Origin: a virus
Length of the DNA stretch: 64,000 nt
Direction: 5' to 3' (one strand)
IMG/VR virus record: IMGVR_UViG_3300020172_001405
Coordinates: 1-64,000 of that record
The position numbers and the translations under genes are program-made. The notes below the pieces were generated by a model, which was not told where the DNA came from, ran no database searches, and was given only the letters and a program-made list of their open reading frames with translations. Positions 6,759-21,072 of this stretch are shown one piece after another (the stretch's first letter is position 1; the number at the start of each line of letters is the position of its first letter).

Positions 6759-7158
6759 GCCACTGCCAAAGATTTTGTAATCTAAGTATTCCCCGATTTT
6801 TCCTCCCCAAATAACGAATTGTGACATGCGTGACACTTACCAGGCCACTGCCTAGCTCAATGTGGTCTTGGTAGTCAATCTCATCTGGCGGCCAACTGAG
6901 GCGAAAAGGCTTAAAGGTGCGGGGGGGTCAAAAGAAGCACTGAACTGAAATTAGTTAAAATTATGGTGAGAGCGAGTGCTCGTGGCACTCGTAAGAAATG
7001 AGTAGGGCGGTAGCCTGTCTGTTAGACAGTCTATCGCCTTTTTTCGTGCCTTCTTCGTGATGTGGATAGGGCAGGGTCAAACCTGCCCTATTCGCCATTG
7101 CCTATAACAATGGGCAAGTCGGGAGATAACTGTCTCCCGTGTAACGAAAGGAAACCAA

Positions 7159-7707
7159 ATGACTACTCAGTCATTGTTCGACCAGTCCGTAGTGGCTGCT
7201 GCTAATGTCCGTGGTGCTCGTGGCGAGGAGCGTGAAATTGAGCGCCTTGCTAATGAGGCTATTGCCAATGGGTGGGGTGCTCCTATCCCTGCCAGTATCT
7301 ACAGCGACCTCGCTGTAGTTGCCAAGAAGGATGGAACCGAAGTGGTGGAAGTATCACCCCTTCAGTTTGCCCACGCCTTCTACTTGGTTCGTACCTACGG
7401 GTACAAGCCTCGTGACGCCCGCCGTATCGCCAAGCGATTCGGTATGGAGTTGGATGGTGTGTATACATCCGACACAGCACAGGTGGTTCGTGCCATCACC
7501 GCTATGGAAGAGCAATTCGTTGACGATAAGGAATCAGTCCTTATCCCAACCAGCATTGCTGCTATCAAGTCCCGTGTCGCTACGCTTAAGAAGCGTATGA
7601 AAGACGGGGCTGTATCGGATGCCGACCTTCAACAGTTGGCATCTATAAGCGAAGAGATCCGTGATCTCTCCGTTGCCACCACCCCATCACTGGTGGTAAG
7701 CGCGTAA
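7159..7707 (+). CDS. Hypothetical protein, first gene of plus-strand block
   Basis: SD AAGGA, 182 aa, flanked by hairpin arrays. Confidence 0.75.
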   Translation: MTTQSLFDQSVVAAANVRGARGEEREIERLANEAIANGWGAPIPASIYSDLAVVAKKDGTEVVEVSPLQFAHAFYLVRTYGYKPRDARRIAKRFGMELDGVYTSDTAQVVRAITAMEEQFVDDKESVLIPTSIAAIKSRVATLKKRMKDGAVSDADLQQLASISEEIRDLSVATTPSLVVSA

Positions 7708-8077
7708 TACTCTAGGCTACTGCCCCCCTAGCCGTACAGCCTGCGTCAGTCCGACCAGGTTATCGGCTAGGGGGTGTGGCTGTTATCAGGGTATTAGGGG
7801 AAGTCAAGGGCTTAGCCAATAGTCCTTGGCCTCTCAACTCTACACGGTACAACCTTCCCCGTACCGTGTGGGGCTGAGGGGTTCATACCCCTACATCTGA
7901 AGATACGGCGATACCTGTGGGAATCAGGAGACTGTTAGGCAATCCCGAAGTACACCCTAACCGCTAATGGCACGAAGATAACTACTCTGTTCTGCCTTCC
8001 ACAATGGGGGGTGGGTATGCCTATGTGTACCAACACAAACCGTATGCCTGCCCCCCATTTCTCCACCCAGTTAGTCC

Positions 8078-8180
8078 GTGAAAGGCGCATCTGTTCGTCT
8101 ATAGGGAGGGTCCTTATAGGTATTGAGTGCTTTCAGCAGGTGCGCCTCTCACTCTCTACCTGAGAGTATTAACTAGGAGG
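8078..8180 (+). promoter_or_regulatory. Structured leader motif, copy 1
   Basis: GTGA-A-11-bp stem...C-TCAC, 6-bp hairpin, then AWTAACTAGGAGG; covaries with copy 2. Confidence 0.7.
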
Positions 8181-8185
8181 TTGCT

Positions 8186-8413
8186 ATGTCAGCAAAAACA
8201 AACGCCATCACAACAGACCTCACAATAGAGGTTATCAAGAAGTTACTGTCGTTAGAGGCTGCTGGACTCGCATCCAGTATCCTCTGGCAAGGCGAGAAGC
8301 CTTGCTCTCAATGCGGTAGCAAGTTGCACAGCAAGTATGAGCGTAATGCTGCTGCTTGGGTATGCGCGGGCTGTTACAACGAGTTCGCCTTAGAGATGGG
8401 ATGGGAAAAGTAA
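8186..8413 (+). CDS. Small CxxC...CxxC zinc-finger protein
   Basis: CSQC...CAGC; SD AGGAGG. Confidence 0.7.
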   Translation: MSAKTNAITTDLTIEVIKKLLSLEAAGLASSILWQGEKPCSQCGSKLHSKYERNAAAWVCAGCYNEFALEMGWEK

Positions 8414-8622
8414 TGGGAGCACCAGCTTGGTTCAAATTCAGGTGCGGTAACTGTAGCGCACCGAATGTAATGACCTACGCAACTACACCTCGTATCAACG
8501 AGGATCGCGTAGAGAAGGTATCTGATAACGGAGGCATCCGTGTATGGCGTTGCCGTTGTACAGAGTGCGGACATTCCACTATGTTCAATGAGCACATAGA
8601 TGGGAGAAAGGAAGCAGTATGA
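8413..8622 (+). CDS. Small zinc-ribbon protein
   Basis: CGNC...CTEC; TAATG coupling. Confidence 0.65.
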   Translation: MGAPAWFKFRCGNCSAPNVMTYATTPRINEDRVEKVSDNGGIRVWRCRCTECGHSTMFNEHIDGRKEAV

Positions 8623-8822
8623 ACTGTGTCCTCTGTGGTGCGCCAGTAGCACCAGACAGATGGGAGATAGGTAGAGATAAATGCCCACCGTGTGGCAGTA
8701 ACCTAGCCAACGAAGAAGTTGCCCAAGACTTTAGGCTTGTTCTTAATCCCAAGCAAGGCTTTGGCATTGTATACAAAGATTCCCCCGATCTTCTTAACGG
8801 GAAGTCATCAGGCAGACAGTGA
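8619..8822 (+). CDS. DksA/TraR-like C4 zinc-finger mini protein
   Basis: CVLCGAPVAPDRWEIGRDKCPPC resembles CxxCGxxIxxxRL...CxxC. Confidence 0.55.
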   Translation: MNCVLCGAPVAPDRWEIGRDKCPPCGSNLANEEVAQDFRLVLNPKQGFGIVYKDSPDLLNGKSSGRQ

Positions 8823-8904
8823 AAGATACATAGGTTGCGGAGTGCCCGCGTAAAGATAGTCCTGTGTATCTCTCACCCTCTATCTGAGGGTAATAACTAG
8901 GAGG
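8819..8904 (+). promoter_or_regulatory. Structured leader motif, copy 2
   Basis: Same architecture as 8078-8180 with six compensatory pair changes. Confidence 0.7.
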
Positions 8905-8910
8905 AATAAA

Positions 8911-9114
8911 ATGGAAAAAGAATGCGCAGTAATTCACTGCACCAATACCAATCTCGTGTACTCAGGTACTGATGCTCTTCAATTAGGCGGTATCCCCACC
9001 GAAAAGTATTGCCGTCCCTGTGCAATCGCTTACACAGTGATCAAAGAAGCAATGAAACCCCAATTGCCCCCTACCGCAGTGTCCCCTAATAGCACAGCGT
9101 CTACCTTTGCCTAA
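8911..9114 (+). CDS. Small Cys-rich hypothetical protein
   Basis: CAVIHC...CRPC; SD AGGAGG. Confidence 0.65.
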   Translation: MEKECAVIHCTNTNLVYSGTDALQLGGIPTEKYCRPCAIAYTVIKEAMKPQLPPTAVSPNSTASTFA

Positions 9115-9413
9115 TGGGCACCAACACAAACACGCCCACCTACGCCAACATCTGCGCCCGATTGCGCTATGTGCGACAACTCAAAGGGTGGACGCTTGAT
9201 GAAGCAGCAGCTAAGTCTAATGGCAAGCACAAAGCCAATGTAATCGGTTCCTATGAACGCGGACAGCGGTCAATCTCAGTCAGGAAACTGATTGAGTTGG
9301 CACGCCTGTACGATGTGCCTATTACCGAATTCTTTGGCATCCCCGACCAAAATGATAAGTCACAGGCTCTCATTGACCTGTTGATTGACCGACTACACGC
9401 ACAGAAGGGATAA
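9114..9413 (+). CDS. XRE-family HTH regulator resembling the BldD DNA-binding domain
   Basis: RLRYVRQLKGWTLDEAAAKSNGKHKANVIGSYERGQRSISVRKLIELARLYDVP matches the BldD N-domain pattern KSxGxxKAxVxGSYERGxR. Confidence 0.8.
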   Translation: MGTNTNTPTYANICARLRYVRQLKGWTLDEAAAKSNGKHKANVIGSYERGQRSISVRKLIELARLYDVPITEFFGIPDQNDKSQALIDLLIDRLHAQKG

Positions 9414-9415
9414 CA

Positions 9416-9646
9416 ATGGACAGACCAATACAGATTGGCAGAGATCAAGTCAATCATTACAACATCTCCACCATCTTTCTAGGTGAAGACTATCAACCAC
9501 GCCCATACGAGACTATGGTCTTTGAGAACGAGGTGTCTATTTACGAAGCACGCTATGAATCAGAGTGGGAAGCAAAGATTGGACATCTACACGCCATTTA
9601 TCTAGCGCGTAATGACAAGTTCCTTCCCCGCGAGTCGCGCTGCTAA
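9416..9646 (+). CDS. Hypothetical phage protein
   Basis: ISTIFLG...YETMVF...RYESEWEAKIGH, phage-type small protein. Confidence 0.65.
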   Translation: MDRPIQIGRDQVNHYNISTIFLGEDYQPRPYETMVFENEVSIYEARYESEWEAKIGHLHAIYLARNDKFLPRESRC

Positions 9647-9661
9647 TAGCGCGACAGTTTT

Positions 9662-9904
9662 AAATGGATAGAGGAAGGCAGAGATAGGGTCTGAGCATCT
9701 CTACCTGATTCTGCAAGCTGCGTTTCAGGTTCTCCGCCACGTATGTATACAAATGGAAAGTGAGTCCTGTGGGTAAATGTTAAGAGAGAATGTGCCTGCT
9801 TGTGCGTGTTAGTCCATGAGAAGGTTACGCAATGCATTGCGTCTACTTCTTTGATACGTGAAACCGATTCGTTACAGCCTATCTCTGTCTTCCCCTGCCC
9901 ATTT
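9662..9904 (+). ncRNA. Putative structured ncRNA E1 (243 nt, 27-position closing helix)
   Basis: 9662-9688 pairs with 9878-9904 (2 mismatches); no credible plus-strand gene inside. Confidence 0.55.
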
Positions 9905-9929
9905 GGACAGGACAACAAGGGAGGGTAAA

Positions 9930-10157
9930 ATGACAAAAGAAACCTTAACGATTACTATCGCTAAGACTGTTCTCTATAAGCATGAGGATACTCATGTTAA
10001 AACAGATGGTGAGTATAGTTGGATTCGATTCAGCAATACATCTAGCTGTCCATTCTGTATCGCAAAGGCAATCCCAATGATTGAGGATAAGAACGACACT
10101 CTTTCATTGGCCCACTACATCAGTGCTAATGCAAAAGCATTAGTCGCTGCTAACTAA
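9930..10157 (+). CDS. Hypothetical protein (CPFC motif)
   Basis: SD GGGAGG; start reassigned to MTKET. Confidence 0.6.
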   Translation: MTKETLTITIAKTVLYKHEDTHVKTDGEYSWIRFSNTSSCPFCIAKAIPMIEDKNDTLSLAHYISANAKALVAAN

Positions 10158-10168
10158 GGAGGCAAATC

Positions 10169-10429
10169 ATGGAAGGTGAGATCATCTTTTACAATGGGTT
10201 CAACCTATTGGTTGACCTAATCATTGCGGGTGCTGTGTTCTACTTCACCCGTCGCTTTATGTACCGAGCAGGGTGGCACGATGGGTACACAGATGGTCTG
10301 TCTGATGTTCAAGACGGACTTGTATACCTTGAGGAACGAGATGGTGTGCTTGAATGGATACCAAACATCGCCCCAACACAAACAACCCCCGACCGCCCCG
10401 CTTTATTCATCGTACCTGAGGCTAACTAA
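10169..10429 (+). CDS. Small membrane protein
   Basis: SD AAGGAGG; N-terminal hydrophobic helix. Confidence 0.65.
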   Translation: MEGEIIFYNGFNLLVDLIIAGAVFYFTRRFMYRAGWHDGYTDGLSDVQDGLVYLEERDGVLEWIPNIAPTQTTPDRPALFIVPEAN

Positions 10430-10671
10430 TGATTAGCAAGAATGGCATACCAGATGACGAACTCTATGTCATCAAAGTATATGAAGACGGTACACACGGC
10501 AAGGCAAACTATTTCGAATACAACAATGCCCTAGACGCAGTTAATGCGTTTAATAAATTCGTTGATCTTGGCGATGCCAAAGATACACGAGCTGTCTATC
10601 TAATTGAACCCAACGAGAAAATACACACGCGTATGTTCATGCGTGGTGAGAAAGGAGTTCTTAAATGTTAA
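10429..10671 (+). CDS. Hypothetical protein
   Basis: TAATG-coupled ORF. Confidence 0.65.
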   Translation: MISKNGIPDDELYVIKVYEDGTHGKANYFEYNNALDAVNAFNKFVDLGDAKDTRAVYLIEPNEKIHTRMFMRGEKGVLKC

Positions 10672-10904
10672 AGCGTAAAACTATACTCGTATCAATCTAT
10701 TACTACAATGACGAACCAAAGTTAGAACTAGAAGACGATTGGCATCCCGATTGGTTATTCCTCAATGATGGCATTGAAAGCCTACTCAAAGAGCACAACC
10801 CAGATACAGAAATCTTTGATGTCTGTATTGATCAAACAAAGCCTTGGCTATTCCGTCATAGCAGATGGTGGACCAAGTACCTATTCAAAGCATTAAGGAA
10901 GTAA
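10665..10904 (+). CDS. Hypothetical protein
   Basis: SD AAGGAG; overlapping ORF. Confidence 0.6.
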   Translation: MLKRKTILVSIYYYNDEPKLELEDDWHPDWLFLNDGIESLLKEHNPDTEIFDVCIDQTKPWLFRHSRWWTKYLFKALRK

Positions 10905-11017
10905 GATGACTAAATTACTATGCAAGATGTATAACCATTACAAATGGTGGTCAATTTGGTGGATAATTCCTGGTATTAACAAGATGTTTTATAAGTTACA
11001 CGACAAGAGGTGTCCAG

Positions 11018-11335
11018 ATGGAAAATGAAGAAACCCAAACCATAGGTAAATATATTCCTGATGATAAAGGTGGCTTTGTATGGACCGAGTTTGATATAGA
11101 GCCGTGCAAAGTGTGTCATCGCAATGCATTCTCTTGTGAGTGTCCGTGCACTTGCACTGACAAAACGTGTGACGAATACCATAAGCACGAATACGAAATA
11201 CAAGGCAGTTATGGCTATGGTTGGGAGCGCCTCACAACAGAGGAGACCTTAGCCGATGCAAATGCTCAATTGGCTACCTATCGAGCCAATGAAAGCATCC
11301 CTCTACGAATTAAGCGAGTAAGAATCACAATCTAA
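11018..11335 (+). CDS. Cys-rich hypothetical protein carrying a 14-aa segment copied from the MoxR ATPase
   Basis: SD GAGG; IGKYIPDDKGGFVW; CKVC...CECPCTC. Confidence 0.65.
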   Translation: MENEETQTIGKYIPDDKGGFVWTEFDIEPCKVCHRNAFSCECPCTCTDKTCDEYHKHEYEIQGSYGYGWERLTTEETLADANAQLATYRANESIPLRIKRVRITI

Positions 11336-11345
11336 TTGGATTCTC

Positions 11346-11419
11346 GCGCTGTTAGCTCAGTTGGTTAGAGCCCCGAACTCATAATTCGGTCGTCGTAGGT
11401 TCAAGTCCTACACAGCGCA
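11346..11419 (+). tRNA. tRNA with CAT anticodon (elongator Met or Ile2), no encoded CCA
   Basis: Acceptor GCGCTGT/ACAGCGC, D arm GCTC/GAGC, anticodon arm CCGAA-CTCATAA-TTCGG, T arm GTAGG-TTCAAGT-CCTAC. Confidence 0.93.
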
Positions 11420-11505
11420 CGACACACTTCAAGAGGAGGGAGTGTCTTTGGTCTGACAAGACCTAAGGTAAAACATGGCCCGCGAGCATCGGGGTATACC
11501 TGCTA

Positions 11506-11538
11506 CCTGTCCTGAGCATGACAAGGATAAACGGCTCA
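11506..11538 (+). ncRNA. Compact H-type pseudoknot in a 5' leader
   Basis: S1 TGTC/GACA, S2 TGAGC/GCTCA, A-rich loop 3. Confidence 0.5.
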
Positions 11539-11572
11539 ACACAAACAAACCCGACACACAGAAAGGCAAACT

Positions 11573-12076
11573 ATGTCAAAAACAAATACGCTAAAAGTTC
11601 GGCGTGTTGATCTTCTTGAACAACTTGAAGAACGATTTGCCTCTATGACTATGGAGAAAGAAAAATATGACAAGCTCAAAGTTCTATACAAAGATGCCTG
11701 TGATAAATACTTCAAAGAAGTAGAGAAATGGGAGGCGCGTATACCCGACTTCTTAGAAGGTGCGGTGCGTGGCTCAGCAATAGAGTTTAATAGGCGTTCA
11801 AACAGGTATTCGCGCTACTCGTATTCTTTAGGCGAGACGTGGGAAGCAAGTGTTAACGTGTGCTTCACTCGTGAAGATTTAGAGAAGCATCTTGGTCCTA
11901 TGCCTGAGAAGCCTGAACAACCCGACACGCCTTCGTTCTTGTGTGAACGAGGCGGCTACAAATACAATCAACCATCGCTATATCAATCAGTTTATCAAGC
12001 AATTCAGTTGTTAAATATATCAGATGATGAGACTGTCTCAGCATCTACTTATCAATCAGCATTGGAGGTGTTGTAA
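11573..12076 (+). CDS. Hypothetical protein
   Basis: 167 aa, SD GAAAGG. Confidence 0.75.
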   Translation: MSKTNTLKVRRVDLLEQLEERFASMTMEKEKYDKLKVLYKDACDKYFKEVEKWEARIPDFLEGAVRGSAIEFNRRSNRYSRYSYSLGETWEASVNVCFTREDLEKHLGPMPEKPEQPDTPSFLCERGGYKYNQPSLYQSVYQAIQLLNISDDETVSASTYQSALEVL

Positions 12077-12618
12077 TGGAAATAGAACTAGATGGTGTTC
12101 GTTGCTACTCTAGCCTCAGCCTAACCTTAACGTTTAAGAAGTGGGTAATAGTAGGCAAGCATAAGAATGAAGACAGACCATTCCGTGTAGATAGACTGGA
12201 TGTTCATTGGGAACCCAGTGTAGATCTAGCATACATCCCACCACACATTAGCATTAACGGGGTGTGGGCCCAAAAAGGTGGTTACAAATGGGGAACACGA
12301 GGTAGTAGTTTCCCAGGTTGGTACGGTGGCGGTGGCCAAGAGTCAATGTCATTTGAGACATTGCCCTCAAGCATTAAAGTATTCATTTATAACACCGTTA
12401 TAAAAGAGACACTAGCATTTGCTGGTGCCTTAGCCCAACAGCTATCATTACTAACTAAAAACAAAGAGTTTATAGTTAATCCAGACCACGTAACAGCTGC
12501 ATTAAATGGTAGCGGAGCATTCCTCCCATCTATAAAACCATCATCATTGTATGCGCCATCTAAATGGGAGAACATGGATGTATCTAAATGGTCAGTAGCA
12601 CGAAAAGAAATAAAATAA
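12076..12618 (+). CDS. Hypothetical protein
   Basis: 180 aa, SD GGAGG, TAATG coupling. Confidence 0.7.
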   Translation: MEIELDGVRCYSSLSLTLTFKKWVIVGKHKNEDRPFRVDRLDVHWEPSVDLAYIPPHISINGVWAQKGGYKWGTRGSSFPGWYGGGGQESMSFETLPSSIKVFIYNTVIKETLAFAGALAQQLSLLTKNKEFIVNPDHVTAALNGSGAFLPSIKPSSLYAPSKWENMDVSKWSVARKEIK

Positions 12619-12653
12619 TTCCCCCTCCGTTAAATACGACGGGGATACCCAAA

Positions 12654-12749
12654 GTTCATATGTGATTGGCCGGTGGGGCCTCCATGGTCGAGGTCCGGTA
12701 ACGGAGCATGCTGTACGAGTGTGCCTTGAGAAACGTAGCACATATGAAC
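12654..12749 (+). ncRNA. Branched RNA domain with perfect 11-bp closing stem
   Basis: GTTCATATGTG/CACATATGAAC enclosing two hairpins. Confidence 0.45.
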
Positions 12750-12751
12750 CT

Positions 12752-12850
12752 GCCTGTGGAAGGACCAAGAGTTACACGATAGGTATACCGTTCGACGAAC
12801 TATGCAACTTATCCTCGTAATTCCGGAGGGTGCAAATCCCTTCACAGGCG
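12752..12850 (+). ncRNA. tRNA-like RNA (acceptor + T arm, no D stem, one long arm)
   Basis: GCCTGTG/CACAGGC; GAGGG-TGCAAAT-CCCTT; arm GAGTTAC/GTAATTC plus GATAGGT/ACTTATC. Confidence 0.6.
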
Positions 12851-12851
12851 C

Positions 12852-13090
12852 GTTGGGGCAGAGGCATAATGATTAGCCAATCTGCGTAGGTATCCCATGG
12901 GGAGACTATTCCTACTGAGTAACTAATCAAAACTATTGAGCCAGATCCAACTTCATGAATCGGTACTGCTGGTGTTGCAGCGCTCTGCAAGGAGCTAAGT
13001 CTGAGACGGATTCGTACAGCGTGACTGTGCATCCAATGTCAAAGCGAGATTCTATCTCAGGTGCGGTGATGTAGGCGCCTCTGTCCCAAC
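12852..13090 (+). ncRNA. Putative structured ncRNA E2 (239 nt, 14-bp closing helix)
   Basis: GTTGGGGCAGAGGC pairs with GCCTCTGTCCCAAC; several internal hairpins. Confidence 0.55.
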
Positions 13091-13117
13091 ACAAACAAAC
13101 TCAACATAGGAGGTTAT

Positions 13118-13411
13118 ATGCCAGTACCAGCAGCTTTACCTAAACCAATCATGGATAACTGGAAATGGCAAGAGGAAGGCCTGTGTCGCTTCGAAAGCCC
13201 CGACCTTTTCTTTTACGATGACAATGAACGCGGTGAAACAAGAGCCGCGAGAGACGAATTAGCCATATCTATATGTAATAGATGTCCAGTATTAAATACC
13301 TGTCTTGAACACGCCCTCACAGTGCCAGAAAGACACGGCATATGGGGCGGCAAGACACAGAACGAACTAGAGATATTGATTCGTAAGCGGAAACGTTCAG
13401 CGAATCGATAG
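13118..13411 (+). CDS. whiB: WhiB-family Fe-S transcription factor, WhiB3/WhiD-like
   Basis: WKWQEEGLCR...LFF..NERG..RAARDELAISICNRCPVLNTCLEHAL..GIWGG. Confidence 0.92.
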   Translation: MPVPAALPKPIMDNWKWQEEGLCRFESPDLFFYDDNERGETRAARDELAISICNRCPVLNTCLEHALTVPERHGIWGGKTQNELEILIRKRKRSANR

Positions 13412-13460
13412 TAAACACGGGAGTGGGAGTTACTAGGTAACGAAAAGTCCCCTCGTTTGC

Positions 13461-13745
13461 TTGAGGCACGGCAGAACGCAGTAGGTTTATTATTTAACCG
13501 CTATATTGCTGTAACCCAATAGAATTAGTATTATCACTGTGCGTTATGTGATCTTCTTGTTCAGCGACATACGAATAAAACGAAAGTGCACGCTAGCTAT
13601 AGCCAAAAAACGTTTTAATTTGTATAGGTACTGTCCGAAGATGGACGACAATACCACATAAGAAAATGTGAGGGTCCTAGATGTATATCGATGTGCATCG
13701 ACGCGTATATGTTCTATTCGATAAATAACTGTGTTCTGTTCTCAA
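13461..13745 (+). ncRNA. Putative structured ncRNA E3 (285 nt)
   Basis: GGCAGAACGCAGT (13470-13482) pairs with ACTGTGTTCTGTT (13728-13740), plus TTGAG/CTCAA. Confidence 0.45.
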
Positions 13746-13746
13746 A

Positions 13747-13792
13747 CCCTCAAGCCATAGCATGTCAGACTAACGGTGCTATGGCTTGAGGG
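13747..13792 (+). promoter_or_regulatory. Perfect 16-bp hairpin upstream of SD
   Basis: CCCTCAAGCCATAGCA/TGCTATGGCTTGAGGG. Confidence 0.6.
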
Positions 13793-13813
13793 CTCATAAC
13801 TATAGGAGGAAGC

Positions 13814-14005
13814 ATGGATCCATTTGAAGAAGCAGAAAAGATAAGGTACATTGAAGAACAATGTGACTCAGCAAAACAGATCATAGAAGCAGCATCAGAA
13901 GACACAGTGCTATTAGAACTAATATCCGAATGGACTAAAGCAAAGATAACTTCATACGAGATGACAGTCATAGCACGTAACAACTACTTAAAAGACGAAG
14001 ACTAA
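13814..14005 (+). CDS. Small acidic helical protein
   Basis: SD AGGAGG. Confidence 0.65.
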   Translation: MDPFEEAEKIRYIEEQCDSAKQIIEAASEDTVLLELISEWTKAKITSYEMTVIARNNYLKDED

Positions 14006-14012
14006 CTTCCCG

Positions 14013-14053
14013 GCGTGAGTGGCACACTTTGAGGTTCGAGTCCTCTGCACGCA
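14013..14053 (+). ncRNA. tRNA minihelix or degenerate tRNA remnant
   Basis: GAGG-TTCGAGT-CCTC canonical T arm flanked by GCGTG/CACGC. Confidence 0.4.
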
Positions 14054-14111
14054 CGGCGGGTGACTACATTGGGTAGTTGCCTTAGCTATAAAGAAAGTGG
14101 AAGGACAGATT

Positions 14112-15521
14112 ATGAAAATAGCTGTTTTCGTAGAAACGTATACGCCGACTATGGGAGCTGATCATCGTCAAGTGATGATGATTCCTCATAACGATACAGT
14201 ACGAGTCTTTTCTCGTTTAAGCGATGGCAATAAAGGTTATGGCAATCGCTGGGACGAATCAGACATCGAAACTGTTGTGAACGCTATGGACCCAAGTGAA
14301 ACCATCACTTGTATTCCATCAGGTGTTCGACTCACTGCTAAAGATATTGAGGCGCTTGACCTTAAAGGTTACGCACCAGTCCTCATGACTAAAGCGGTCA
14401 ACGCACACCTTAAAGCGCAACCGTTTGATGAAGAGACAGACGCTGCAGAGCGTATCTGTGCCCTTTATCAAGACGTATCTGTTCAGAGTTCTAGCCTTGA
14501 AGATCTAATTATTGATCTTCGTAGCCAGACTCCGGCATCACCGTTCCTTCCGCAGTCTGCTCCAACACAAACATCCACGGCCAATAACCTTGATGAACTA
14601 CCTCGCGTAGCTCTCGCAAGTATCCCCCCAATGGATCGCGCTAAAGCCTATATCAGTCGTGACATCGTAGGTATTCAAGACCTCGAAGTTTACGACAAGG
14701 CTCGCGCTAACAAGTTTGATGTGCTTATCTACGGGCCAACCGGTCCAGGTAAGACATCATCCGTAGTTGCATGGGCTGCATCACGGAAGCTACGTATGGC
14801 AACTGTATCTGGTAACGCTGCACTCGAACCAAGCCAACTCATCGGTAAGTATATTCCTGATGGCAAAGGTGGCTTTGTATGGATTGACGGCCCAGTAACA
14901 GACGTTGTACGTAATGGCGGTGTTCTATGTCTTGATGAGGTTAACTTCATCAGTCCTAAGATCTATACCGTTCTGTATTCGTTGCTTGATGACCGCCGTT
15001 GTTTAATTCTTCTCGACCATATGGGCGAGACTGTAGAGGCTCATCCAGACCTCACAATCTTTGCGACTATGAATCCAAACTACATTGGTACTACACCTCT
15101 GAACTTTGCATTCCGTAATCGCTATGTCGTACAAATCCCTTGGGACTATGACGACAAGGTCGAAGACAAGCTTGTGAAGTCACAAGCACTCAAGATTCTA
15201 AAGAATCAGTTGCGTGCTGAGGCTAACAAGGGTGAGTTCGAGACACCAATCTCAACTAACATGCTGATGGAGTTTGAAAAGCTCGTTAAGGTGTTCAGCT
15301 TTGAGTTTGCAGTTGAGAACTTCATTGCTCACTTCGAACTAGAAGAACAAGACAAGGTACGACTTGTATTTACTACACATGAATACAATCTGAAGTCTGA
15401 CTTTGATTTAGTGGAAACATCAGATCAAGACAAGGGTGATGACAGTACTGGCCTCGGAGAGAATATTGTCACCGAGGTTGAGAACTGGTTGACATCAAAC
15501 AACACTCCAACTAATCCATAA
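14112..15521 (+). CDS. MoxR/CbbQ-family AAA+ ATPase with N-terminal extension
   Basis: Walker A GPTGPGKT, WIDGPV, Walker B LCLDEVN, ATMNP, FRNRY. Confidence 0.9.
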   Translation: MKIAVFVETYTPTMGADHRQVMMIPHNDTVRVFSRLSDGNKGYGNRWDESDIETVVNAMDPSETITCIPSGVRLTAKDIEALDLKGYAPVLMTKAVNAHLKAQPFDEETDAAERICALYQDVSVQSSSLEDLIIDLRSQTPASPFLPQSAPTQTSTANNLDELPRVALASIPPMDRAKAYISRDIVGIQDLEVYDKARANKFDVLIYGPTGPGKTSSVVAWAASRKLRMATVSGNAALEPSQLIGKYIPDGKGGFVWIDGPVTDVVRNGGVLCLDEVNFISPKIYTVLYSLLDDRRCLILLDHMGETVEAHPDLTIFATMNPNYIGTTPLNFAFRNRYVVQIPWDYDDKVEDKLVKSQALKILKNQLRAEANKGEFETPISTNMLMEFEKLVKVFSFEFAVENFIAHFELEEQDKVRLVFTTHEYNLKSDFDLVETSDQDKGDDSTGLGENIVTEVENWLTSNNTPTNP

Positions 15522-15530
15522 GGAGTAATC

Positions 15531-17483
15531 ATGGGATACCACGATGAGATAGACACTGGGTATCACAGTGAGGCTCGAACAGAAGAGAAACAAAAGCGGG
15601 CTCTACGTCTAGGCACACTTGCAAGAGTGTATCAAGGCGCAGACCGAATTCTTACTGGCGACCCACTAGTGGTAAACATAGTTGACAGCGGACCAGCACC
15701 TGCTTGGTCTGATGGCGCATCCATAACTCTCAATGCTGAATACATCAATGAGATGGACTTGGAAACGCTAGTACAAATTAACGGCCTCAATTACCATGAG
15801 CTAGCCCATCATTTGTACACACCACGTAAAGGTACTCCGCTAGTACAGTGGGTTATCGAGAATGATCTATTCCAATCGTTCAATATATTGGAAGATCAAC
15901 GTATCGATACCTTGCTGTGTGCACGTTACCCATCAATCATGCCATTCTTGGAAGCTACAGTCTTACGGTATCTAGCCGATAAGCCTGAAGAAGCCATTGG
16001 TAATTACTTGGTGGTACGTGGTCGTAAGTATCTACCAGTTGAGGTACGGCAAGGCTTTAGAGATATCTTTATAAGGCCTGATCTAATACCAGCCATCTGC
16101 AGAATAGTTGATGAGTATCGAGTGCTCGCATTCCCTAGGGATTATGCGAGAGCGCAAGAACTTATCAAAGAACTCTATGATGAAGTATTAATTCACTTGC
16201 CTATACCTTGTTCAGGCGGCATATCACAATGCGGCCATAGGTCTCCTATACAAAAAGGCAGACCAGAACCTGGCAAGATGCAGGAGTATGACTCAAAAAG
16301 AGCTAAAGGAATGGGCGTCAGTGAAGACGAGTACATTCCTAGAACCTCTGAAGAGAAGCAACAGCTTGATGAATTGTTAGATGAAGTTGACAGAATGTCA
16401 ACTGCCCCTGGCAATGTTAATGGAGAGGAAGATCCTTTAGGTGAAGACCCTCTTGCTGATCTAAACAATCAGATTAAAACATCTCAAGATGCGTTAGCCA
16501 AGCGTGAAGCTTCAGTATACTCAACACCATCTGTTGGTCAAGGACATGTAGATAGTGTGGGAGGAATCCCAGATGACCTACAAATTACGCTGAACAATGC
16601 CCTGAACAAGGTGCATGAGCGTAAGGATGTTCTAGCCGATGTTAAGCGCAAGCAAAGCATAGTAATCGGTGGTGATGATAAAGGCGGAGAAACTGGTAGG
16701 CCTGGCAAGTTTGATAAGGCAGACGTACCAAGTGCCGCAATGGTTGCCTATCGAAAGTTCGCACACGAACTACAAAAGCTCCGTGATGATGCGGAGCCAT
16801 TCTGGGTCAAGGAGATGTCCTCTGGCAAACTCAATGTACCTAGACTAATGCGTGGCGAGGTAGAGATAGACAAAGCCTTTGACCGTTGGACTGAACAAGA
16901 CGACAGCACAGATATCGAAGCGATTATCTGCGTGGATCGTTCAGGTTCAATGGGCAGTGGCAATAACGATCAGATGGCATCTATTGCATGCTGGACTATT
17001 AAGCGTGCTCTCGAGCACATTAACTGTCCGGTTACAGTGTATGCCTTTGACGACAAGACTGAGGTTGCCTACTCTCGAACAGAGAAAGCAGACAAGACTC
17101 AGTTCAAATTCATCTATGGTAACGGTGGTACTGAGCCGTACGAGTCATTGATCCTAGCGGAGAAGACTCTTATGGCGTCCACACGTAACAACAAGATGCT
17201 ATTCATCATTACTGACGGTGTGTTCAACACAAACAAAAATGATGAAGTCATAGCACGTATGGCAAAACGAGGAATCCTAACCTCTCTTGTACTAATCATG
17301 AGAACCAAGGATTATCTAGACGCTAAACAATCTAACGAGCAGGCAATTGCCGAAGGCAGGCCTGGACGTTGGGAGCTAAGACATGGGGCAGAAATATTCG
17401 GCAATGTTAATAGTGCTGCCGACTTAGTTCCATTTGCCCGAGCAATAGTCACCGGAGCAATCCGCAAGAAATCAAGGAGGTAG
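15531..17483 (+). CDS. vWA-domain protein with N-terminal HExxH metallopeptidase-like domain (MoxR partner)
   Basis: YHELAH, NILEDQRID; MIDAS DRSGSM, GGT, ITDG. Confidence 0.88.
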   Translation: MGYHDEIDTGYHSEARTEEKQKRALRLGTLARVYQGADRILTGDPLVVNIVDSGPAPAWSDGASITLNAEYINEMDLETLVQINGLNYHELAHHLYTPRKGTPLVQWVIENDLFQSFNILEDQRIDTLLCARYPSIMPFLEATVLRYLADKPEEAIGNYLVVRGRKYLPVEVRQGFRDIFIRPDLIPAICRIVDEYRVLAFPRDYARAQELIKELYDEVLIHLPIPCSGGISQCGHRSPIQKGRPEPGKMQEYDSKRAKGMGVSEDEYIPRTSEEKQQLDELLDEVDRMSTAPGNVNGEEDPLGEDPLADLNNQIKTSQDALAKREASVYSTPSVGQGHVDSVGGIPDDLQITLNNALNKVHERKDVLADVKRKQSIVIGGDDKGGETGRPGKFDKADVPSAAMVAYRKFAHELQKLRDDAEPFWVKEMSSGKLNVPRLMRGEVEIDKAFDRWTEQDDSTDIEAIICVDRSGSMGSGNNDQMASIACWTIKRALEHINCPVTVYAFDDKTEVAYSRTEKADKTQFKFIYGNGGTEPYESLILAEKTLMASTRNNKMLFIITDGVFNTNKNDEVIARMAKRGILTSLVLIMRTKDYLDAKQSNEQAIAEGRPGRWELRHGAEIFGNVNSAADLVPFARAIVTGAIRKKSRR

Positions 17484-17487
17484 AATC

Positions 17488-17946
17488 ATGGCATACTCTA
17501 AACTCATACTGGATGCGCTAGTACAGAATCCAGATGATAAAGATATATCCCGCATGGTAGTGATTATAAATGAAAGCGCTGTTTATCAAGACTTCGCTGA
17601 CTTTCATAAGCATGACCCAGAATGGTGGGAAGCCCTAGCTAACAAAGTGTATGAGACTTCTGCATACCCAAAGATGGCGTTAGCCCCACTAACAATAGCC
17701 GCAAGTCAATACCTCTGTGATCCAGAGCAAAGTCTTGAGGATAAAGTAGTTCCACTAATCGGAAAAGCAATGGCAATAAACGATGACCACCAACCAACTC
17801 AACGTCTTGCCAAAATAACTCTGGCACTTAAAATGGGTGGGCTGGAAAGACCGGATGTAAATGATATCCGAGACAGCGTTCTGCCTAAAGTACTCATCTT
17901 AGTTAAGCAACTAGACGAAAAGTTAGCGTTAGCTCAGGAGGAATAA
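17488..17946 (+). CDS. Hypothetical helical protein
   Basis: SD AAGGAGG. Confidence 0.7.
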   Translation: MAYSKLILDALVQNPDDKDISRMVVIINESAVYQDFADFHKHDPEWWEALANKVYETSAYPKMALAPLTIAASQYLCDPEQSLEDKVVPLIGKAMAINDDHQPTQRLAKITLALKMGGLERPDVNDIRDSVLPKVLILVKQLDEKLALAQEE

Positions 17947-18674
17947 TGCAAGAGTACAAAGAAACACCTGTGTTTTATCGTAGGTGGGCTCGTGTACGTA
18001 ACTGGCAAGAAGCAGCGAAGTGGATAGAGGGCGGAAGAAGTTCCGAACACCGCCCTTTATATCACCACAGTCTGGGAGTAGCCTATGAAAACCCATACGA
18101 TAAAACTTCAGACATAGTAATAAACTATCGCTGGAGACATATAAACCCCGCATACATAAAACCTGGCGAGTATATAGTCAAGTTTACAAAAAGCGGCAAA
18201 ACATTCATAAGCGCGTCTGTTGGCTGGAATAGAGCACAAAGACGCGTTATGGAAGAGTACGCCAATTTAGTTGGCCTTAGATGGGATTACTACAGTAAGT
18301 CCCTGATCATACGCCAACCAGATGACCCAATAAATACTGGCAAGGGATTACGAAAATGCCGTAGATGTGATGGGGCCAAGAAAGAGATCTACACCTGTTC
18401 AATGGGTTTTTGGAGTAGGCCTGCGTATATACGGGCTAGCTACAATCAATCGTTTGAATGCACCCATTACGAAGTAGACGACCTACGACGTGATGCTCCA
18501 CACCTTACTACAGCAGATTGTCAACGCTGTGAAGGTAAGGGAAAAACAATACCTCTCTCAAGAATACAAAGCTTCAAGTGGCGTCCAGATGAGAACGGTG
18601 AATTCATACCGTTAGAGGTAAATCCATTAACAAGCAAACTAATACTACCGGAGGAACTATGTACGTCGTACTAG
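17946..18674 (+). CDS. Hypothetical protein with DnaJ-type CxxCxG zinc motifs
   Basis: CRRCDG, CQRCEGKG. Confidence 0.7.
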   Translation: MQEYKETPVFYRRWARVRNWQEAAKWIEGGRSSEHRPLYHHSLGVAYENPYDKTSDIVINYRWRHINPAYIKPGEYIVKFTKSGKTFISASVGWNRAQRRVMEEYANLVGLRWDYYSKSLIIRQPDDPINTGKGLRKCRRCDGAKKEIYTCSMGFWSRPAYIRASYNQSFECTHYEVDDLRRDAPHLTTADCQRCEGKGKTIPLSRIQSFKWRPDENGEFIPLEVNPLTSKLILPEELCTSY

Positions 18675-18865
18675 ATGTAATAACGTCTACATTAATTGGT
18701 CCATTTAATGAAGAGCAAGAAGCTGTTGACTTTCAACTGCATGCCTCTGACTTATTGGCTGATGTAGATGCAGGCTCAGAGTTAGAAATCCACGAGCTAT
18801 TTACTCCACAAGACTGGGCATTCCAGAACCTTGATGAAGAAATAGCATCAACCGCAGCAATCTAG
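18659..18865 (+). CDS. Small acidic hypothetical protein
   Basis: SD GGAGG. Confidence 0.65.
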   Translation: MYVVLDVITSTLIGPFNEEQEAVDFQLHASDLLADVDAGSELEIHELFTPQDWAFQNLDEEIASTAAI

Positions 18866-18873
18866 GAGAGATC

Positions 18874-19419
18874 ATGGGCTTAGATAACATACCCAAAGTA
18901 TTACCGTGCCTAAAAGCAGGTACGGCCGTACTAACAATATCAGCAAATCAAGCAAAATCAGAAAGAGTCGACTGCGATGCTACGCAAGCAGTAGACCGAT
19001 GCCCCTATGTAACAGAGCGTAGAAAAGCTATTGTTAACGAAGGGGTTACAGGCATAATGGGTACAGACTGTTGGTACAGAGGTAAGTACGGAAACTATCT
19101 TCTAGAACAACTCGGTCTCGACACAAACACCTGGAGCTTCTACGGTGACCTAGCTGATGATGGCGGATTAAGCGAAGAGTACTGTACGACGCTAGCAATA
19201 AAAATCCGTCAAGAGCTAAACAAAATGGATAAAATCAAAACATACAAAGAAAATGCCCCAAAGACTCTTGCGGAACCTTTCTCTGGTGCTGTAGGGTGGC
19301 CAGGGGCATACGAGCCAGATGAGGAGCAGAAGAAAGAGTTCAAGGATGACCTTGAATATGCTGCTTGGTGGCTTGACTTTGTAGCAGAACACGCAGATGG
19401 ATCGTCCATCTGGTATTAA
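18874..19419 (+). CDS. Hypothetical phage protein (MGLD...WY type)
   Basis: SD AGGAG; MGLDN start, CWYRGK. Confidence 0.7.
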   Translation: MGLDNIPKVLPCLKAGTAVLTISANQAKSERVDCDATQAVDRCPYVTERRKAIVNEGVTGIMGTDCWYRGKYGNYLLEQLGLDTNTWSFYGDLADDGGLSEEYCTTLAIKIRQELNKMDKIKTYKENAPKTLAEPFSGAVGWPGAYEPDEEQKKEFKDDLEYAAWWLDFVAEHADGSSIWY

Positions 19420-19429
19420 GGAGGCAATC

Positions 19430-20056
19430 ATGGAAAAAGTATGTAGAAATATAGTGACTATGTACTCTTCTGTTGAACGAATCAACGAAATTGTAGACTC
19501 ACTTAAAACTGAGGATAGAGTTGTTTCTTTTAACAAGCTTTTACCTACTCCACCAGAGTTAGTAGAGGCAGCTAAAACTCAAACCCTTACGCCGTCGTTA
19601 GTTGAACGCTTTGGTGCAATGGACGTAGGTACATGGCGCCTAAAGAATTGGGGATGTCCCAAGGACACACTTACTTCAGCAATCGTCGATGAGGCAGAGC
19701 TTGACTTTGCCTCTAAAATGGGTCAAGAAGTAGTCGATAAGTTAACCCCAGAACAATTAGCAGAAGCACTGACGTTTGAGAAAGCAGTAGCTATTGCTTT
19801 TGATACGACAGAAACCCCAAATGCCTTTGTTATGAAGTTGTCAGAAAAGTTTCCGGACATGCGTATGCACTACTCGTACGATAGTGATTCGGAAGATGTC
19901 TCGGGATGGCTCGTCGCCTCAAACGGCGAAGTGCATAGTCACGAGCATTACAACAATTGCCTAACGGCAATTAAGCTACACATCGAACCGTTCAAGAATG
20001 ATCACAGCAGCCTGCTGTCAGCATTGTTGAGCGAGGGAGATGAAGACTCAAACTAG
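19430..20056 (+). CDS. YubB/DUF1281-like ferredoxin-fold protein
   Basis: SFNKLLPTP, WRLKNWGC, FDT..TP...KLSEKFPD pattern. Confidence 0.65.
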   Translation: MEKVCRNIVTMYSSVERINEIVDSLKTEDRVVSFNKLLPTPPELVEAAKTQTLTPSLVERFGAMDVGTWRLKNWGCPKDTLTSAIVDEAELDFASKMGQEVVDKLTPEQLAEALTFEKAVAIAFDTTETPNAFVMKLSEKFPDMRMHYSYDSDSEDVSGWLVASNGEVHSHEHYNNCLTAIKLHIEPFKNDHSSLLSALLSEGDEDSN

Positions 20057-20076
20057 TAGAAGGGGAAATACAGCCA

Positions 20077-20280
20077 ATGTCACAGCAAGACCCTTTCATC
20101 TCAATCCAGGTAACGTTCGAATGTCGCCTGTATCACGGCAGATTAAAAACTCCACTAAGCCTGGAGAATAACTTCCTGCTATACATACGCGATCAATTCA
20201 CTACAGGCTGGCTTGATAGAAACCAATTGCGACCCGGGGAAGATATTTGTATCATTGATGCAAAGATTATTTCCGAATAG
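20077..20280 (+). CDS. Hypothetical protein
   Basis: ORF in operon. Confidence 0.5.
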   Translation: MSQQDPFISIQVTFECRLYHGRLKTPLSLENNFLLYIRDQFTTGWLDRNQLRPGEDICIIDAKIISE

Positions 20281-20378
20281 TTTGACAAATTGACGGGCCC
20301 CTAGGCAATGCAGCCGTGCCGTATTGCCTAGGGGACTTAAGAACCCTAGTAGAGGAAGGAGTTCGAGAAAAGTATATC

Positions 20379-20900
20379 ATGGTGAATACATTCCTGCCCT
20401 ACGCCGATGAAGTAAAGACGGCTAGAGCATTAGACGATAAACGCTTAGGTAAGCAACGTGTAGAAAGTCTACAAATCTTAAAAGCTAATCTAGGTATGAC
20501 GCTAGGATGGAGAAACCATCCAGCTGCAATCATGTGGAGAGGTCATGAAGGACTTCTCTGTGTGTACAATCTACGCATATGTGAAGAGTGGGTAGACCGT
20601 GGCTTCCAAGACACAGTCTCAACACAAACACAAGACATCATGAACACCCTAGATCCACGATCATTTAGGCGACCGTGGTGGTGGGGTAATGAAGACTTCC
20701 ATCGAAGTCATCAATCTAATCTGGTAAGAAAAGCCCCGCACCTTTACGGGTTTGATGTGCCAGACGATCTGCCATATCTATGGCCAAAAGAAAAAGGAAT
20801 ACTACTAACAAAGGAAGAATCACATGCGATCAAAGCTCAATTACTCATTCAAGCTCGCAAAAAATCAAGAGAAGAGCGGAGCTTGGCTGGCAACAGTTGA
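20379..20900 (+). CDS. Pyrimidine-dimer DNA glycosylase/endonuclease V-like (actinobacterial type)
   Basis: NTFLPY...LDDKRLGKQRVESLQIL...WRNHPAAIMWRG...HRSHQSNL...DDLPYLWP. Confidence 0.85.
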   Translation: MVNTFLPYADEVKTARALDDKRLGKQRVESLQILKANLGMTLGWRNHPAAIMWRGHEGLLCVYNLRICEEWVDRGFQDTVSTQTQDIMNTLDPRSFRRPWWWGNEDFHRSHQSNLVRKAPHLYGFDVPDDLPYLWPKEKGILLTKEESHAIKAQLLIQARKKSREERSLAGNS

Positions 20901-21072
20901 GATAACTGGGGACTCAGATGCAGTACCTGAGGAATCAGTTATTCAATCTGCTTGGACGAGTGTTGCTCCAGCTAAACGCTGGTGTGCTCAAATGGTAAAC
21001 CGTAAATCTATTCGTTGGACAGCTGACGAAGAGAGTAAAGTGTTTACAGCTACAGTAGAGGTGAAGCTATGA
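20824..21072 (+). CDS. Hypothetical protein
   Basis: SD AAGGA; overlaps upstream gene. Confidence 0.6.
   Translation: MRSKLNYSFKLAKNQEKSGAWLATVEITGDSDAVPEESVIQSAWTSVAPAKRWCAQMVNRKSIRWTADEESKVFTATVEVKL

Follow-up and report, generated by a model that had tools for sequence, protein, structure and literature searches.

An uncultured actinobacterial phage from a lake, whose 101-kb genome has terminal repeats and includes a WhiB gene, encodes between its early genes three structured RNAs, each closed by its own terminal helix. They are strand-specific modules at the RNA level that fold independently, and they match no RNA family described in Rfam 15. The window analysed here comprises the first 64,000 nucleotides of the virus record, and all coordinates refer to it. 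The modules, E1 (9659-9907), E2 (12850-13092) and E3 (13461-13745), have in their closing helices (the clamps) a hexamer pair in common, in which GGCAGA is paired with UCUGU(C/U). Our preferred reading, which we hold tentatively, is that the clamp is a common processing or binding site, probably for host RNase III, and that a cut there would free the interior RNA from the + strand early transcripts.

Three closed modules between early genes

All three modules lie in the + strand early block, in intergenic gaps between + strand ORFs, which is where the first-pass annotation of the window had placed them. Each ends 10-60 nt upstream of the Shine-Dalgarno sequence of the next gene; the genes just downstream are a 75-aa gene, WhiB, and a 63-aa gene with an AAA/VWA pair. 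On the 5' side, E1 is directly preceded by a GC-rich hairpin (9634-9655, + strand) that spans the stop codon of the gene upstream, and like hairpins are located at 13419-13452, before E3, and at 12622-12644, before two smaller modules (E0-A and E0-B) that precede E2. The order of hairpin, module and Shine-Dalgarno sequence is seen three times. The gap between hairpin and clamp is too small for a promoter, and no promoter or terminator of E1, E2 or E3 themselves was evident. In the predicted folds, the modules do not sequester the ribosome-binding sites. E3 is separated from the Shine-Dalgarno sequence that follows it by a further + strand hairpin (13747-13792), which is 98% conserved and whose 17 pairs comprise a perfect inverted repeat of 16 nt and one U-G pair. 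The structured elements make up about 1.3 kb of the tightly packed early block and are conserved as faithfully as the adjoining genes.

The closing helices were recovered in single-sequence minimum free energy folds as well as in alignment folds. E1 is closed by a rod formed by 9659-9699 with 9866-9907, which has 37 pairs, five of them G-U, and is interrupted by two conserved A-C mismatches; a repeat search detected its arms as an inverted repeat of 27 nt with 85% complementarity. The rod of E3 (13461-13509 with 13703-13745) consists of about 37 pairs in three segments, again with five G-U pairs, and surrounds an AU-rich interior. The clamp of E2 is shorter, with 15 pairs between 12850-12865 and 13077-13092. 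When the energies of the terminal duplexes were compared to those of 500 dinucleotide shuffles, the observed value was reached by none of the shuffles for E1 and E3 and by seven for E2. The pair probability of the clamp in a context of about 1 kb was 0.98 for E1, about 0.9 for E3 and 0.31 for E2. The long-range closing helices reported in the first-pass annotation are thus real, and longer than the 13-27 bp given there. The interiors are multibranched and unlike each other in all three modules, also as had been described. Since each of the five G-U pairs in the rods of E1 and E3 would be a C-A mismatch on the other strand, the fold belongs to the + strand (sense) RNA.

E2 is directly preceded by the two smaller closed modules on the + strand. 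E0-A (12654-12749), directly 5' of E0-B and E2, has an 11-pair closing helix and a hairpin with a loop of variable length; one of its stem pairs shows the series C-G, U-G, U-A. E0-B (12752-12849) is tRNA-shaped, with a 7-bp acceptor-like stem, a T-arm-like hairpin whose loop reads UGCAAAU, and one long arm. Neither ARAGORN nor Rfam called E0-B, and with relaxed settings ARAGORN returned only noise on the modules. E0-B abuts both E0-A and E2 with linkers of 0-2 nt, and a tRNA-shaped module set so closely against E2 suggests punctuation by processing. The only match to an Rfam 15 covariance model that passed is a tRNA-Met at 11346-11420.

With regard to proteins that might act on such RNAs, PHROGs and Pfam gave no RNA-related function for the small early proteins, the early proteins have no recognisable RNA-binding domain, and genes for RNase III and RtcB are absent from the phage genome. 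A 180-aa protein of the phage has 11 homologues.

Conservation in relatives and coverage by RNA contigs

Six near relatives, two from IMG/VR and four short contigs from one metagenome scan, keep all three clamps, and every relative with coverage carries all modules. In the alignments, pairing is preserved in 99.1% of the cells for E1 (4 sequences), 98.7% for E2 (6 sequences) and 98.9% for E3 (5 sequences). E1 has five pairs in which both bases have changed, and its covariation score was reached by none of 500 shuffles. Double changes from G-C to A-U are present in the clamps of E1 and E2, with two separate ones in E2, and some of the changes that preserve pairing pass through G-U intermediates. 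In the outer rod of E3 there is one wobble-compatible change only; the shape of an inner hairpin of E3 is kept through more than 10 substitutions, and the inner stem of the hairpin at 13419-13452 is fully compensated in one relative (L011). The homologues are about 88-94% identical, so this covariation amounts to a handful of events among 4-6 sequences, and it was counted in the very sequences that had yielded the structures. Since compensatory change keeps the hairpins of the interiors, these are probably functional themselves and not mere spacers.

A protein-coding gene inside the modules can be ruled out. Among the relatives, E1 has three indels of 1 nt and E2 has one; in E3, stop codons interrupt the + strand frame in four of four relatives and that of the - strand in one (L019). 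Conserved ORFs within the elements, which would have spoken against the initial proposal, were accordingly not found.

More distant homologues are few. A search with the WhiB protein returned only three near-identical proteins. Scanning with a degenerate pattern of the E1 motif plus clamp gave 36 loci, and the E1 profile matched only the two known relatives. The pattern of E2 arm plus 12-mer (see below) gave 79 loci, all of them chance matches in coding sequence except for the two known near relatives (L013, L014) and two distant ones, G001 and G002. At the equivalent position, the latter two contain long structured gaps that are free of a GGCAGA clamp and, in comparisons to E0, E1 and E3, showed no similarity. 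Similar DNA was not found in the phage collection except for the tRNA, and there are no further copies of the modules in the genome or its relatives.

Within E2, the 5' half (12851-12933) is conserved, and the 3' half (12934-13078) is one of two alleles. In relatives with form B, an unrelated segment of 76 nt replaces the form A sequence at 12934-13078; the clamp is the same, with 23 pairs compared to 15 in form A.

The modules and their neighbouring genes are covered by metatranscriptome contigs from two studies, although the joining of sequences in a contig is not proof of a single transcript. These contigs have no end or strand information, and an RNA library can hold DNA. One contig starts at 9683, just 3' of the GGCAGA of E1; another ends at 13477 and a third starts at 13488, just past the GGCAGA of E3. 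We regard these boundaries beside the hexamer as a weak hint of RNA ends at the clamp; the one at 13477/13488 could equally be a transcription start inside E3. At E2, an RNA contig runs unbroken across the clamp into WhiB. The contig of the E3 interior is deeper than its neighbours in two RNA libraries (53 vs 6-20 in one run), where contig depth cannot rank abundance. E1 and E2 have no excess depth over their neighbours, and bins without cover are uninformative.

The common hexamer and what may read it

GGCAGA is found in the 5' arms of E1 (9677-9682, + strand), E2 (12857-12862, + strand) and E3 (13470-13475, + strand), and is paired with UCUGUC at 9884-9889 and 13080-13085 and with UCUGUU at 13735-13740, respectively. 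The second G is opposite a U in each case (G9678-U9888 in E1), so that the hexamer search and the folds bear out the common wobble that had been noticed initially. In the whole 101-kb genome, GGCAGA and TCTGTY are paired in extended helices only in these three modules; the closed modules at 12654-12749 and 12752-12849 do not have the hexamer. It is invariant in all 4, 6 and 5 sequences of E1, E2 and E3, respectively, while adjacent clamp pairs vary with compensation. A 6-mer common to three arms of such composition, whatever its sequence, arose in 334 of 200,000 shuffles, a value to be read as about ten times weaker because the three modules were chosen from at least five closed modules.

Other similarities connect E1 and E2. 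A motif of 18-20 nt, at 9859-9878 in E1 (+ strand), where it makes up the 3' side of the inner rod, and at 13002-13020 in E2, is real but borderline significant (2 of 300 shuffles), and E1 and form A of E2 have five collinear 7-mers in common. Apart from the hexamer, E3 is no more similar to E1 or E2 than expected by chance, and the word family, used in the first-pass annotation, is too strong for it. A direct-repeat search also yielded the polar 12-mer CCAACACAAACA (13085-13096, + strand), which starts at the last base of the E2 UCUGUC and shares bases with the outer 3' clamp arm as far as 13092.

In the reading that we prefer, E1, E2 and E3 would be made as domains of the + strand early transcripts, each flanked on one side by the hairpin after the preceding stop codon and on the other by the ribosome-binding site of the following gene. 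The clamp would be recognised by an endonuclease specific for double strands, most likely host RNase III; the host enzyme is proposed because the phage has no RNase III gene. A cut at the clamp would separate the cistrons, leave the upstream message ending in a protective hairpin, and release the interior as a separate RNA some 200 nt long. The helices of E1 and E3, which dominate the ensemble and are far more stable than shuffles, argue for processing, as does a hexamer that stays fixed while neighbouring clamp pairs co-vary. Recognition of the RNase III type requires about two helical turns (at least 20 bp) of mostly continuous double-stranded RNA. The 37 pairs each of E1 and E3 reach this length, but the E2 clamp, with only 15 pairs (23 in form B), is short for RNase III and has a low pair probability, and the unbroken contig across the E2 clamp also speaks against a cut there. 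Moreover, the hexamer could have been inherited through duplication rather than kept for a shared reader.

The continuity of that contig into WhiB would be expected if the modules were uncleaved cis-acting leaders of the genes just downstream, with the GGCAGA:UCUGY helix serving to co-regulate three units, as an operator for one RNA-binding protein or as a contact site of RNA polymerase or the ribosome. The short distance from every module to a Shine-Dalgarno sequence and the overlap of the 12-mer with the outer 3' arm of the E2 clamp fit this explanation, and an invariant sequence, wobble included, within a co-varying helix is typical of a protein-binding site. We still consider it rather unlikely, since the ribosome-binding sites are free in the predicted folds, no riboswitch or leader family was matched and no early protein has a recognisable RNA-binding domain; the exchange of half the E2 interior among close relatives is also odd for a sensor of a ligand or protein. 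The compensatory change that keeps the interior hairpins could instead mean that the modules are stable phage RNAs acting in trans, whose terminal helix merely closes and protects the fold and whose hexamer is a duplication relic of one ancestral module. Such common descent is suggested by the five collinear 7-mers of E1 and E2 form A, the tRNA gene and the tRNA-shaped module are nearby, and the depth of the E3-interior contig is a weak hint in the same direction, as depth cannot rank genes. However, E3 has nothing but the hexamer in common with the others, a relic hexamer should vary like the neighbouring clamp pairs and does not, E1 and E2 lack excess depth, and the modules have neither an evident promoter nor an evident terminator of their own, which makes this explanation unlikely in our view.

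Far less probable still is an origin at the DNA level, as miniature inverted-repeat mobile elements, or as cassettes for recombination, with a core common to their terminal inverted repeats. A 27-nt imperfect inverted repeat around about 190 bp has the right anatomy, the arms do have a core in common, half of E2 has been exchanged, and L011 has another gene upstream of E1, with the replacement reaching as far as the edge of the module. Yet the five G-U pairs per rod and the G-U intermediates matter only in the RNA of one strand, and the neighbourhood examined has no transposase gene. Mobile elements in particular were rejected: no direct repeats abut the ends, the five-base repeats located close to the termini of E1 (GACAG) and E3 (CCCTC) do not adjoin symmetric ends and are therefore not target duplications, there are no other copies in the genome or relatives, and none of the relatives with coverage has an empty site. 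Processing at the clamp could also be part of a more elaborate arrangement, a modular cassette system in which a dedicated host or phage factor reads the six-pair G-U clamp and excises interchangeable RNAs of about 200 nt, with interiors swapped as decoys or counter-defence RNAs under diversifying selection. The cassette idea of the first-pass annotation gains some support from E2, where one clamp is combined with two different 3' halves; as a whole, we judge such a system to be quite improbable. The exchange between forms A and B is the instance cited for interior swapping from strain to strain.

Relation to known RNAs

Freshwater actinobacteria are abundant, and they and their phages are barely tractable. 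Isolates of phages that infect 'Ca. Nanopelagicales' now exist (PMC10202952). To our knowledge, almost nothing is known of how early gene expression is organised in these phages. If the clamp is a processing or binding site, it would provide a defined RNA signal for tracking early expression in metatranscriptomes, a new example of phage punctuation of polycistronic messages, and a set of compact, autonomously folding RNA domains with testable roles. If it is only a duplication relic, there are still three new structured phage RNAs.

Against Rfam 15, which includes riboswitches, leaders, ribozymes, 6S, tmRNA and tRNA, the + strands of E1, E2 and E3 had no match at E ≤ 10. The + strand rows for mir-137 and HBV epsilon fall only on the flanking hairpin 13747-13792 and are at chance level. 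A retron msr-msd RNA is similar in being a structured RNA of 150-250 nt closed by end pairing (the a1/a2 repeats), but a retron was rejected for lack of a reverse transcriptase: a search of the 101-kb genome with PF00078, in which the controls responded, gave nothing at E ≤ 1. A Ro-bound Y RNA (YrlA) was likewise rejected, as there was no Rfam match at E ≤ 10 and PF05731 (Ro/TROVE) is absent. Among candidate structured RNAs predicted from IMG/VR are conserved intergenic RNAs of uncultured phages, many of them just upstream of genes or tRNA-like (PMC10690425). The text of that study, which was the basis of our comparison rather than its candidate list, names no motif linked to WhiB or actinophages.

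GOLLD and ROOL are large, ornate non-coding RNAs of phages and prophages, function unknown (cryo-EM preprint 10.1101/2024.12.08.627333). The modules resemble them as elaborately folded phage non-coding RNAs, some of which come from lakes, but they match no Rfam model, are 240-285 nt long and occur as several different modules per genome with a common clamp. GOLLD and ROOL are far longer, at 500-800 nt, and often close to tRNA genes. Phage T4 has two small, structured and stable RNAs, species 1 and 2 (rnaC and rnaD), also of unknown function, which adjoin tRNA genes and which processing enzymes of the host excise from a longer precursor. The modules have no sequence or Rfam relation to them, are larger, and lie between protein-coding genes instead of in a tRNA cluster.

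The closest parallels to the proposed processing are the RNase III signals R0.3-R1.3 in the early polycistronic mRNA of T7 and the long-range stems that flank 16S and 23S rRNA in their precursors. The T7 sites are double-stranded RNA located between the cistrons of an early phage message, which is probably true of the modules as well. Both have internal mismatches in the helix, and processing of the T7 sites leaves the upstream message with a 3' hairpin, as we propose here. The precursor stems resemble the modules in their long-range pairing, here around an RNA of about 200 nt. T7 sites, however, are local hairpins of about 60 nt that are empty inside, whereas the helix of the modules encloses a conserved multibranched domain of 190-240 nt. 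In contrast to both systems, the modules have the same invariant six pairs, G-U wobble included, at three sites, and their cleavage is a proposal.

Closing helices and their common hexamer

The record behind the window is a complete virus of 101,464 bp with direct terminal repeats. Almost every long non-coding gap in the genome falls within the early block, a run of small unknown genes on the + strand (about 7000 to 21000), which on the same strand also carries a tRNA-Met (11346-11420), a WhiB gene (13118-13411) and, after the module E3, an AAA_5/VWA pair (14097-17483). The WhiB gene suggests that the host is an actinobacterium. The pair, an AAA_5 ATPase and a VWA-domain protein, is CobS/CobT-like and is still conserved, at 26-32% identity, in distant relatives.

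The non-coding modules E1, E2 and E3 occupy three of the gaps in this block, and single-sequence folds close each of them with a long-range helix, the clamp. In the alignment folds, the clamp is a rod of 37 pairs in E1 (9659-9699/9866-9907), a helix of 15 pairs in E2 (12850-12865/13077-13092) and a rod of 37 pairs in three segments in E3 (13461-13509/13703-13745), all on the + strand. Dinucleotide shuffles reached the observed terminal-duplex energy in 0/500 (E1), 7/500 (E2) and 0/500 (E3) cases, and the clamp pair probability in about 1 kb of context was 0.98 for E1, about 0.9 for E3 and 0.31 for E2. The first-pass annotation had described intergenic elements with long-range closing helices, and both types of fold bear this out.

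The 5' arms of all three modules contain GGCAGA, paired with UCUGUC in E1 and E2 and with UCUGUU in E3, so that the second G lies opposite a U each time, as had been claimed. Across the whole genome, these are the only GGCAGA...TCTGTY pairs in extended helices. Shuffled arms had any 6-mer in common in 334 of 200,000 trials, but the true significance is weaker by about a factor of ten, because the three modules were picked among at least five closed ones; it gains from the wobble being at the same position each time. The idea of a family of three holds as far as this hexamer. E1 and E2 share more, namely five collinear 7-mers and a common motif that is real, if borderline (2/300 shuffles), whereas E3 has no sequence in common with them besides the hexamer.

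Sense-strand folds in near relatives

IMG/VR contains two near relatives (L010 and L011), and a single metagenome scan yielded four short contigs (L017-L020). The modules were found in every relative whose sequence reaches them, with exactly three clamps per genome. They are thus kept in near relatives; at 88-94% identity to the window, with most neighbour genes similar, these sequences are too close for deep covariation.

Pairing-preserving changes were nevertheless found in all three modules, in folds derived from the same few sequences. In E1 (four sequences), 99.1% of cells are paired and five pairs have changed on both sides, among them one G-C to A-U in the clamp and three within one hairpin; none of 500 shuffles reached this covariation score. 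Among six sequences of E2, a G-C pair of the clamp became A-U by a double change on two separate occasions, in different lineages, and A-U became G-C in an inner hairpin. In E3, 98.9% of cells are paired across five sequences; there is one double change in the rod, and an inner hairpin retains its shape despite more than 10 substitutions, including U-A to C-G between L011 and L019. As each long rod contains five G-U pairs and G-U is an intermediate in several of the changes, the fold is specific to the sense RNA and is no DNA palindrome. Conserved ORFs, which would have spoken against such elements, were not found inside them: E1 and E2 have indels of one base and the frames of E3 are interrupted by stops, which rules out a coding role.

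Two forms of E2 occur, A (window, L011, L020) and B (L010, L018, L019), which have the clamp and the 5' half in common. The 3' halves are unrelated (145 nt in form A vs 76 nt in form B), and in form B the replacement half pairs with the conserved 5' half. Segments of the E1 rod seem to recur in form A as collapsed copies. Of the proposed cassette system, in which a common helix releases different RNA cargoes, the constant clamp with an exchanged 3' half is thus found in E2, while the release of a cargo would be a further step.

Possible processing at the clamp

A GC-rich hairpin at or right after the upstream stop codon precedes each of the three module groups (9634-9655, 12622-12644 and 13419-13452, + strand), leaving no room for a promoter between hairpin and clamp, and the distance from the end of each group to the following Shine-Dalgarno sequence is 10-60 nt. 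In L011, the hairpin at 13419-13452 has a fully compensated inner stem. Our tentative interpretation, which we hold to be possible, is that E1, E2 and E3 fold as autonomous domains within early transcripts and that their common clamp is cut by an endonuclease specific for double strands, probably RNase III of the host. The folds, their strand and the invariant hexamer are established, whereas the cut and any role of the interiors are inferred. Such a cut would leave an upstream message terminating in its own hairpin, make the downstream message begin just ahead of its ribosome-binding site, and free the module interior. Because the interior hairpins are kept by compensation, the modules appear to be more than bare cleavage sites. 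They belong with a known kind of element, the structured RNA signals that lie between genes in the early operons of phages.

Relatives of the module region are present as contigs in two freshwater metatranscriptome runs from two studies, covering 9683-10265 (E1 and the next two genes), 12649-13477 (E0, which consists of two closed modules 5' of E2, then E2 and WhiB) and 13488-13877 (E3). One contig begins right after the E1 GGCAGA, and the break at 13477/13488 falls just after that of E3. These contigs do not show transcript ends, strand or abundance, and their boundaries are a weak hint of cleavage; the break could just as well reflect a transcription start site within E3. Depth is higher for the E3 contig than for the adjacent ones, depth not being a measure of abundance.

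An uncleaved leader that binds a protein seems an unlikely explanation, and we are slightly more doubtful that the modules are stable RNAs acting in trans, with the hexamer as a relic of duplication. An element acting at the DNA level is very improbable: the G-U pairs of the rods place the fold on the sense RNA, and no target duplications, further copies or empty sites were found that would support a mobile DNA element. No Rfam family matched the modules, short stretches included, even at E <= 10. The genome has no genes for reverse transcriptase, RNase III, TROVE or RtcB, which excludes a retron (no reverse transcriptase) and a phage-borne Ro or ligase system (no TROVE or RtcB). Text searches of a paper library did not find such elements described in freshwater actinophages.

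Neighbouring elements and distant relatives

E0-A (12654-12749, +), with a hairpin loop of variable length, and the tRNA-shaped E0-B (12752-12849, +), with an acceptor-like stem of 7 bp plus a T-arm-like hairpin whose loop is UGCAAAU, stand in tandem directly 5' of E2 with linkers of 0-2 nt and lack GGCAGA. In relatives with only about 70% identity in the upstream gene, both modules still reach 92-94%. This 180-aa gene (12076-12618) has about 70.5% DNA identity in L011, L018 and L019 (three of the four relatives measured). On its 3' side, the one flank for which identity was determined, the DNA is 88-94% identical, and the gene resembles an exchanged allele. A 98% conserved hairpin of 17 pairs (13747-13792; 16-nt perfect inverted repeat, 12-nt loop) without a U tract behind it separates E3 from the following ribosome-binding site.

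The 12-mer CCAACACAAACA is polar, repeating in one direction across the early block (10372, 11535, 13085-13096 and 17223), and its copy at 13085-13096 shares bases with the outer 3' arm of the E2 clamp. Its enrichment (7 and 6 copies vs 0 for the reversed control), together with the AAA/VWA pair, identified the distant relatives G001 and G002. In both, the E3-equivalent place is occupied by a structured gap of 300-430 nt, with neither similarity to E0, E1 or E3 nor a GGCAGA clamp; the clamp family is thus restricted to one narrow clade. Within these non-coding gaps, upstream of AAA/VWA, they have in common a hairpin that carries a GCAA cap and two compensatory pairs (locus L133, G001:C1:47000-60300, about 10868-10915; locus L134, reverse complement, about 10756-10804). 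This is a structured RNA of another kind in the position that corresponds to E3.
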